From NCBI GenBank assembly GCA_963693365.1, contig CAVNZM010000015.1, forward strand, positions 5,526,624 to 5,590,623: a stretch of 64,000 nt of DNA, written 5' to 3'. The notes beneath the pieces are model-generated. The model had not been told where the DNA came from. It saw only the letters and a program-made list of their open reading frames with translations, and did no database searches. Below are positions 13,101 through 16,100 of the stretch, piece by piece; the stretch's first letter is position 1, and each line of letters starts with the position of its first letter. Position numbers and translations under genes: made by a program. This DNA comes from Amoebidium appalachense. Lineage: Eukaryota; Protista; Ichthyosporea.

Positions 13101-16100
13101 GTTGCTGGGGTTTGTGTGGGTGGGTGATGTCCCCTGGCGCTTTATCGCCTGTTACACTCCCCCCATCACCCCCCCCCCCCCCCCCCCCCCCCCCCCACAC
13201 ACACACACACACACCTTTCCCACCCCTTTCCTTGCTTTCCCCCCCCCCCCCCCCCCCCCCCCCCCCCAAATAATATTAATAATAATAATACTAATAATCA
13301 TAATAATAATAAAATCGAAAAAATCACACTGTTCTCTCACACATACACACTCACACTCGCACTTACACACACTCTCTCTCTGCCCCTCTCCCTCTCATTC
13401 TTTGTCTGTCTCAAACCCCCCCCCCTTCCCTCCCTCCCTCCATCCCTCCCTCCCTCTTTCTGTCTCCCTCTCTCTCCCTGTCTCTCTCCCCCTCCCTCGC
13501 TCCCTCCCTTCTCCCTCTCCTCCCCCGTGCCCCCCTTTCTCTCTTTTTCTTTCAATCACCCCCCCCCCTCTCTCTCTCTCCCTCCGCCCCTCCACCGTCC
13601 GCCGCCCACCACACACACTACGTACACACCACCACACACCTCCTATTCATGTTCCAGAAATCCCCTTGCTCTCTTTGGGATCCTCCCCCTCCCCCTCCCC
13701 CCTGAGGATGGGCTCTGCTCATTATGTATACTCTTTATGTATGGTTTGCACTCAGCATCGTGTTATCCGTTGTTCTTGTGTACTTCGTACTGTACAACCC
13801 ATTCAAACCCCCCCCTCCCCCCCCGGAGAGCCGTATGATGGGAAACTATCACGTACAGTTTGGGAAAGGGCTTTTAACTAATGGTTCAAAAAAAAGAACG
13901 GCTCCCCTCCACCCTCCCAACACCCCACCTCCCTTCATGCTTGTTTGTGAGAGGGTAGATTTTTAGCGGCACAAATCGAGAGTAGGTGTGAATGCCTAAT
14001 ACCCGACCAATAAACAATTGGTACGTAAACAAACGGCTAACCCGGAGGAAATGTGTCGCCCAGACAGTTTGCTTTTTTTTTTTTTTTTTGCTACCTACCG
14101 GGATCAAACTGCACCGAAAAACATGAAAGGAAAGGAAAGGAAGGAGGGGAGGGGCAGGGGGGGTCATGTGATGTTAGAGAGTTGCCTTTTATGGAAGTTG
14201 GTTGCCCTTAATGGAAAGAGGCTGACACGCGGGTGCAGGCACAGTGGCATCTCTTCCTATCGACAGCTTTGGGAGATACTTTGTTGGTGGGTATCCCCTG
14301 CTCTTGCTGGGAGTATATCACACACACACATTGGATATGACCACATGCACCTGCACCTGCATAAACGGACACACGCACACAGACACACCAACAGACAGAG
14401 AGGGGGGGGGGTGGAGAAAGAGAGAGGAGGGAAGGAGGGAGGGGGGAGAGAGAGAGAGAGAGAGCGGAGAGAGAGAGAGAGAGAGAGAGAGAGAGGGAGA
14501 GAGAGAGAGAGAGCGAGAGAGAGAGAGAGAGAGAGAGAGAGAGAGAGAGAGAGAGAGAGAGAGAGAGAGAGAGAGAGAGAGAGAGAGAGAGAGAGAGAGA
14601 GAGAGAGAGAGAGAGAGAGAGAGAGAGAGAGAGAGAGAGAGAGAGAGAGAGAGAGAGAGAGAGAGAGAGAGAGAGAGAGAGAGAGAGAGAGAGAGAGAGA
14701 CCAACACACCTACCTGCACATTCGAAAAGTGTGTGACTGCCTCATGAGGCGCGATGTGGTACGAAGTCTGAAGGAGTTACCGGTGTGTGCTCACGGATTC
14801 TGTTGCGCTACATATTTTATATATTTTATATATTTTGATATAATATGATATATATTGGCTTCTTCTTTGGATCACGGGGCGGCACTAGGTTAGGCAATCA
14901 TGTGTATAGCTGGGGAGGGGAGGTGGAAACGGGAGAGGGGAAGAGGGGGGGGGGGGGGGGGGGCACGTGCAACTTACCAACGGAGTTGCAGATGTGGGTG
15001 AGGGGGGTGTAGCAGTCGGCAAGGGGGGAGGTGAGTGGGTGTGTGGGTGGGGGGGGGGGGTGAGGGGAGGAGGGGACGCTGGACAAGGAAGGGGGGGGGG
15101 GGGGGGGGGGGTTGTGTGTGTTGTTGTTGATTGGGGACGGATGGTGGTATGTGTGGAGCGTAGGTATCTAAACACCTTGTGTGTGTGGGTTTGTGGTTGT
15201 GGTTTCCGTCTGTTGGTGTATGGGTGTGGGTGTGGGTGGGGGTAGATGGGTGTGCGTGTGGATGTGTGTGGATTGGTGTGTGTCCGTGTGTGGTTGTATT
15301 GTTTGTGTGTCCACGCTGGTATGTGGGTAGGAAATACTCGAGTAATCAAGGGGTGTGTTGGGGGGTGGAAGGGTGGGTAAGTGGGTGAATAGGTGGGTGG
15401 GTGTATGTGTGTGTGTGTGGGGGGGGGGGGGGGGGGGGGGGGGGGGGGGGGGGGAGTAGGTGGGTGGGTGGGTGGTTTTGTTTGTTTGTTTGTTTGTTAT
15501 TTTTTTTTTTTTTTTTTTTTTTGGGGGGGGGGGGGAGGTGTGTGTGTGCGCATGCTTGCGTGCATGTGTGCATGTTTGCGTGTTGCGTGCCTGCATGTGC
15601 AGGTGGGCATGCGTGATTGTTTTTGTCTGTCTACATGACCTGCGTGTCTGTCTCTAGGTGTGTTTCGGGTTAGTGAAGAGAGTGAGGGTAAGGAATTCCG
15701 TCGTTCGACCATCGGGTGGTTTTTTTGTGTGCCTGTGTACATTTATGGTTAATCTACTCATTTATGTGGGTCAGACGGGTGGTGTGTGTGGGGGGGGGGG
15801 GGGGGGGGGGGGGGGGGGGGGGGGGGGGGGGGGGGGAGGGGAGGGGGGCTGTTATTGGAATGCGGTAAATGACAGATCATACATTTTACAGGGTGGTTTT
15901 GATACCTCCGAGGGAGAGAGTAACGACGAAATGGACAGTGAAGAGGAAGCGGAGTTGGCTGCTTTGGAGGTGGAAATGCTCGGTGAAGACGAAGGAGATG
16001 GTTGGGATATACACGAAAATAAGGATATATCCGAGATACCAATTGATGAGATGACATATGAACAGGAGGAGGAATGGGCGGAGGAAGGTTTGAAAGAGGA

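Follow-up and report, generated by a model that had tools for sequence, protein, structure and literature searches.

The window analysed here, a stretch of 64,000 nucleotides of Amoebidium appalachense DNA, carries a multi-exon gene on its plus strand (~10500-16350), with an acidic last exon at 15892-16350 and further exons read by eye. The last exon (P0046) had no relatives among 2187 candidates of 267-2000 aa, and no Pfam family was detected between 10.1 and 16.8 kb when 96 and 84 open frames were scanned. An intergenic reading of the region, drawn from this Pfam-empty interval, was overturned by a spliced contig in one of the public sequencing runs. Part of the stretch is contained in 14 of the 24 listed runs; four of these (X1, X2, X7 and X8) were examined, as contigs throughout, with depths that by the tool's own warning are not copy numbers, and X1 is possibly the source sample of the window itself. 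The spliced contig, a single one, comes from X7: its loose end before 14239 equals window positions 12559-12588, giving a join of 12588 to 14239 across which the reading frame stays open. The join delimits a spliceosomal intron of 1650 nt (12589..14238, plus strand) with GT at 12589, CAG at 14236-14238 and, ~13 nt before the acceptor, CTGAC, which we take to be the branch-site word. The downstream exon (14239..14286, plus strand) is covered in X7 at a depth of 35 in bins 14240-14287 and 0 beyond, and GT follows at 14287. There is no RNA run among the listed ones, though X7 contains the spliced join. A first-pass annotation of this DNA had placed a group II intron domain V (DV) inside a nuclear intron, and the 12588/14239 join of a GT..AG intron bears out that placement.

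Within the intron, on its sense strand and 340 nt upstream of the acceptor, lies a 75-bp insertion (13824..13898, plus strand), which we interpret as a NUMT and whose GC content is 0.375, compared with 0.53 and 0.57 in the flanks. It contains a 34-nt DV at 13828..13861 (plus strand). The Rfam scan matched Intron_gpII (RF00029) at 13826-13878 with 47.2 bits and an E-value of 3.8e-06 against a gathering score of 40, and this was the sole gathering-level Rfam match in the 64-kb window. The AGC triad is intact (13829-13831), the loop is a GAAA tetraloop, an AC bulge stands at 13851-13852, and 13 of 14 pairs are formed, with a single C-A mismatch at 13832/13857. The triad, bulge and GNRA loop by which a DV is assigned to group II are all present, and the canonical 34-nt geometry described in the first-pass annotation, together with the significant RF00029 match that it had proposed to look for, is confirmed. 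The sequence is nevertheless not in its intact state: the Rfam score of 47 bits is to be set against 67-69 bits in the cox1 intron relatives discussed below, and the fold has -8.7 kcal/mol (z -2.1), whereas the intact form of one of these relatives, L046, reaches -16.5 (z -5.0). It departs from the donor form at two positions, 13857 and 13861, and because one of these changes breaks the pair adjoining the triad, we conclude that this DV copy is decaying rather than conserved. In a search for further group II pieces in the window, both the Rfam scan and blastn against 121 loci gave this copy alone; a loose DV pattern run on both window strands had 0 matches and missed the known copy itself, making it uninformative on further copies.

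Directly upstream, at 13697..13823 (plus strand), lies a copy of a nuclear repeat that is present in very high copy number and carries a C-rich tail; the insert is placed at the end of that tail. Four copies of the repeat are present in the window, the other three at 16687-16815 (90%), 59945-60056 (76%) and 56974-57107 (71%). The summed depth over 13688-13783, a contig depth and not a copy number, reaches 1.7e5-5.8e5 in X1, X2 and X8, compared with ~20-50 in the unique flank. The repeat family also occurs at 60160-60184. In the copy at 16687 the 5' part is longer and includes an inverted repeat, along with a hammerhead-like match at 16594-16667 that is weak (14.2 bits against a cut-off of 34; E 3). 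The repeat words CGAAAC and CTGA(G/T)GA presumably resemble the hammerhead cores of Penelope-like elements.

This repeat occupies the place where the 3' segment of domain I (DI) had been proposed to adjoin DV. We aligned the 440-nt DI-DIV part of L046 locally with both strands of four flank ranges, and the scores of 17-28 were near shuffle level (18-22, at shuffle level, for 13640-13824). The best of them, 28, came from the minus strand of 13899-15000, and 2% of shuffled sequences attained it, this being one of 8 tests; control alignments on three relatives scored 69, 162 and 244, with nulls of 23-30. The Rfam D1-D4 families gave 0 matches in the flanks, but the same models miss intact introns too and are powerless here. 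An upstream DI was rejected, the segment being a high-copy dispersed host repeat with no likeness to the DI-DIV of L046. A downstream DI at ~13935-14075, suspected from a resemblance, is likewise unsupported, this stretch being single-copy host DNA in X1, X2, X7 and X8. Overall, the DI-DIII which a functional group II intron carries upstream of DV were absent from the four flank ranges tested.

The limits of the insertion are given by a contig from X2 (depth 23.3) that joins 13823 to 13899, skipping 75 positions with a 3-letter slack; the letters between are not known. CGG stands both at 13824-13826 and at 13899-13901, and the ends of the insert are therefore movable by 3 nt. This empty site is one contig in one run of the four, with its left side inside the repeat. 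Consistent with an empty site, the flank contig of X8 starts at 13899, and that run has no window-type letters. In runs with the insert, no listed contig piece from the four runs bridges the left junction, which falls within the C-rich repeat tail, as might be expected if an assembly artefact had fused the end of a mitochondrial read with nuclear DNA at a stretch of poly-C. However, contigs from two runs, belonging to two studies, cross the right junction with 0 differences (X1, 13864-14036; X7, 13842-14060). Insert and empty site also match exactly, given a 3-nt duplication, and at single-copy depth the nuclear copy shows two letters of its own. All of this makes such an artefact highly improbable. 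The 3-nt direct repeat at both ends would fit a deletion equally well, in which case the insert would be older and the isolates without the 75 bp would have lost them by deletion between the two CGG words; the direction of the change is unrooted, with no outgroup. Against this, the 3 differences in 69 nt from the donor form (see below) point to a young copy, and we regard a loss as very unlikely. The group II intron origin of the 75 bp is the same under either direction.

Beyond DV, the only parts of domain VI (DVI) retained in the insert are its 5' arm and apical loop (13862..13898, plus strand), according to an alignment with L046, L067, L071, L099 and L101. In these five relatives DVI is a long stem with the bulged A four letters upstream of the exon, and 17-19 of the 19 pairs of the reference structure, which was taken from L046, are kept, versus 7 of 19 in the window. 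The window DVI ends just past the A-rich apical loop; its 3' arm, the bulged A and the 3' splice site are absent from the insert. What had been called a decayed DVI is instead one cut off after its apical loop. The short DVI drawn by Rfam (13862-13878; a 4-bp stem around a 3-nt loop) was dismissed as model collapse, no such stem being kept in the relatives.

The pairing of the G-rich arm with 13904-13914 that had been put forward does not stand either. The fold of 13862-13915 is no better than that of shuffled sequences (z +0.74; 150 of 200 shuffles as good), and partners equal to the proposed one are common by chance: of 2908 22-nt tiles across the window, 131 contain one, as do 11 of the 60 tiles in the interval immediately upstream (12.5-13.8 kb). 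This should serve as a caution that C-rich flanks easily imitate a DVI partner. The candidate branch A at 13911 lies outside the 75-bp insert, in a C-rich host flank (13899..13920, plus strand) that in the X2 contig without DV comes directly after the repeat tail. Since this contig skips exactly 13824-13898, A13911 is host DNA predating the insert and already present in the allele without it. Sequence identity to the five relatives agrees with these limits: 54-55 of 59 positions over 13825-13883, within the insert, versus 15-18 of 42 over 13899-13940 and 5-8 of 25 just upstream. A functional group II intron would be marked by a DVI carrying a bulged branch A and by AY at the 3' splice site after it, and no such arrangement was found here.

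These observations bear directly on the proposal of a mini-intron lacking DII-DIV. A nuclear mini group II intron that is, or until recently was, functional, with DI joined to DV-DVI and branching at A13911, would account for the intact triad, bulge and loop of DV and for their sense orientation within a transcribed intron. It is contradicted by the identity of the upstream piece as a high-copy repeat, by DI-DIV alignments at shuffle level, by the missing DVI 3' arm and by the presence of A13911 in pre-insertion host sequence, and 340 nt downstream the host intron provides splice signals of its own. With no DI adjacent, DVI cut off and A13911 belonging to the host, we conclude that this proposal is almost certainly wrong. 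The nearest known case to such a mini-intron is that of the Euglena group III introns, which PMC4424553 describes as 90-120 nt long and sometimes reduced to DI and DVI motifs only. These keep DVI and the splice sites and are without DV, whereas the window keeps DV without the DVI branch site and without both splice sites.

The exact 29-nt DV core matches ~800 metagenome stretches, and 121 listed loci were taken as the comparison set. Blastn of the whole window against these loci produced 126 matches, every one starting in the 13800 bin. In the five closest of the 121, the relatives named above, the matches are longest and continue through the DVI 5' arm. The intron of L046 (2558-3095; 538 nt, longest Met-ORF 67 aa) is flanked by exons reading ...YFTAA before and MIIAVPTG... 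after; the 3' exon is COX1 (62.5 bits), no family was found for the 20-aa 5' exon piece, and by alignment the other four share the exon start of L046. Comparison with mitochondrial introns, as advised at the first pass, yields the answer to what the fragment is, as its closest listed relatives are mitochondrial cox1 introns. The group II introns at this T/MIIAVP site of cox1 have the same DV as the window except for two letters, and the DVI 5' arm is common to both, whereas DI-DIV, the DVI 3' arm, the bulged A and a cox1 exon are missing from the window. The size of the family varies, the L046 intron being compact and ORF-less and the same-site intron of L071 having ~1160 nt before DV.

Two forms of DV occur in the public runs. 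The canonical letters at 13857/13861 account for 25043 of the depth of 25070 in X1 and 22.9 of 30.3 in X7, and for all of the depth in X8 (11500 and 17125) and X2 (95.9). Among the four runs, window-type letters at these positions are present only in X1 (~27) and X7 (~7.4), equal to the depth of the unique flank. The deeper, donor form was found in all four. Relative to the flank, its depth ranges from ~4 to ~900x between runs, whereas the nuclear repeat is steady at 10^5 in X1, X2 and X8; such swings against a steady nuclear repeat fit organelle DNA. The donor is seen as contig pieces only, made up of 13825-13893 and a 26-nt loose end. Upstream of 13825 it differs from the window: the loose end, found in two X1 contigs, begins just before 13825, leaving GG common to both at the left end. 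It contains a short hairpin by eye and begins like the pre-DV stretch of L099, L101 and L071. We infer that it represents an ORF-less DIV, and that the donor is mitochondrial DNA without an ORF in DIV.

Some other high-copy source could in principle have supplied the fragment, such as a nuclear repeat or older NUMT with a DV, or bacterial or other organellar intron DNA. Many of the ~800 stretches with the exact DV core have bacterial-looking flanks, and the genome location of the donor was deduced rather than read. On the other hand, among the 121 listed loci the DVI 5' arm matches cox1-site introns only, and the donor form is present in 4 of 4 runs at a flank-relative depth that varies >100-fold, unlike the nuclear repeat. 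We therefore consider a non-mitochondrial donor unlikely.

In the same runs, the insert has 3 differences in 69 nt from the deeper donor form, the latter being read from contigs and not from a genome. The X7 donor-type contig has 3 differences, only 2 of them located (13857 and 13861), and each of these two is a transition at a CpG. Given 4 CpGs in the 69 nt, the chance of both falling at CpG is ~0.012, a figure that considers position alone and covers 2 of at least 3 differences. The CpG o/e of the window is 0.64. As far as these letters go, the CpG transitions suggest decay in methylated nuclear DNA.

We conclude, with a probability of roughly 0.9, that the 75-bp segment is a group II intron fragment that likely derives from the mitochondrial cox1 gene of the organism itself and was likely used as filler at a double-strand break (DSB), and that it now resides in a 1650-nt spliceosomal intron. 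We read the locus as an ordinary small NUMT from a mitochondrial group II intron, present in some isolates and absent from others. Three of the four marks of a NUMT were observed: the insert is embedded in nuclear single-copy sequence (right junction in X1/X7, with a spliceosomal intron around it), there is an empty site, and there is an end-joining signature of microhomology and short duplication; the fourth, identity with the organism's own mitochondrial genome, we infer. The break would have occurred at the end of the C-rich tail of the repeat and been patched with a mitochondrial fragment. End joining might have proceeded via the 2-nt GG match on the left, while filling of a staggered break would have produced the 3-nt duplication. 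The two DV changes could then have arisen later, in the nucleus, by CpG deamination. The insert would be removed with the host lariat and have no catalytic role because DI-DIII and the branch site are missing, and it is likely an inert passenger and not a mini-ribozyme.

This is similar to what has been described for DSB-captured NUMTs. In PMC2567098 and PMC2820518, these are likewise short organelle-type fragments that lie in nuclear introns and show presence/absence, and the window insert likewise combines 2-nt microhomology on one side with a short target duplication. Target duplications of 1-11 nt were noted in 17 of 71 primate NUMT events (PMC2567098), and the junction class of Fig. 2D in that paper matches this locus; NUMTs can be polymorphic, and are enriched in introns, according to PMC2820518. 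The present case differs from the primate NUMTs in two respects: what was captured is a catalytic group II DV, and the host is a non-primate eukaryote. Nuclear genomes, as stated in PMC4424553 and in much the same way in PMC4524724, exclude group II introns save for presumably inert sequence moved with mitochondrial DNA. Compared with the inert nuclear sequences mentioned in these texts, the window holds no complete intron within a long stretch of transferred DNA but a scrap of one domain, for which an empty allele was observed.

A significant Intron_gpII match in a nuclear genome can be a tiny organelle-DNA insert, and the locus is a clean small case of a presence/absence NUMT whose junction can be read and which can serve as a strain marker. 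There is a slim chance that the inserted DV is non-neutral, in that it might fold, bind splicing factors or dock on the DI-DIII RNA of another nuclear copy, altering host splicing in carriers. If such an effect were true, the two alleles would form a natural plus/minus pair for a U6-ISL-like domain inside a spliceosomal intron; unless an effect on splicing is shown, the locus has no bearing on the origin of spliceosomal introns.

Elsewhere in the window, a MraW/METTL15-like methyltransferase gene with small exons lies on the minus strand (~3015-9620), with Methyltransf_5 (Pfam) at 3015-3362 and 8628-8942 and a candidate exon at 7443-7494. The plus strand encodes a PB1 and ZZ zinc-finger protein (23602-24645), p62/NBR1-like by domain order, and an open frame with an RGS domain (38722-39705; 36 bits). 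A ~185-bp unit is present at 4891-5451 in three tandem copies of 96-98% identity.
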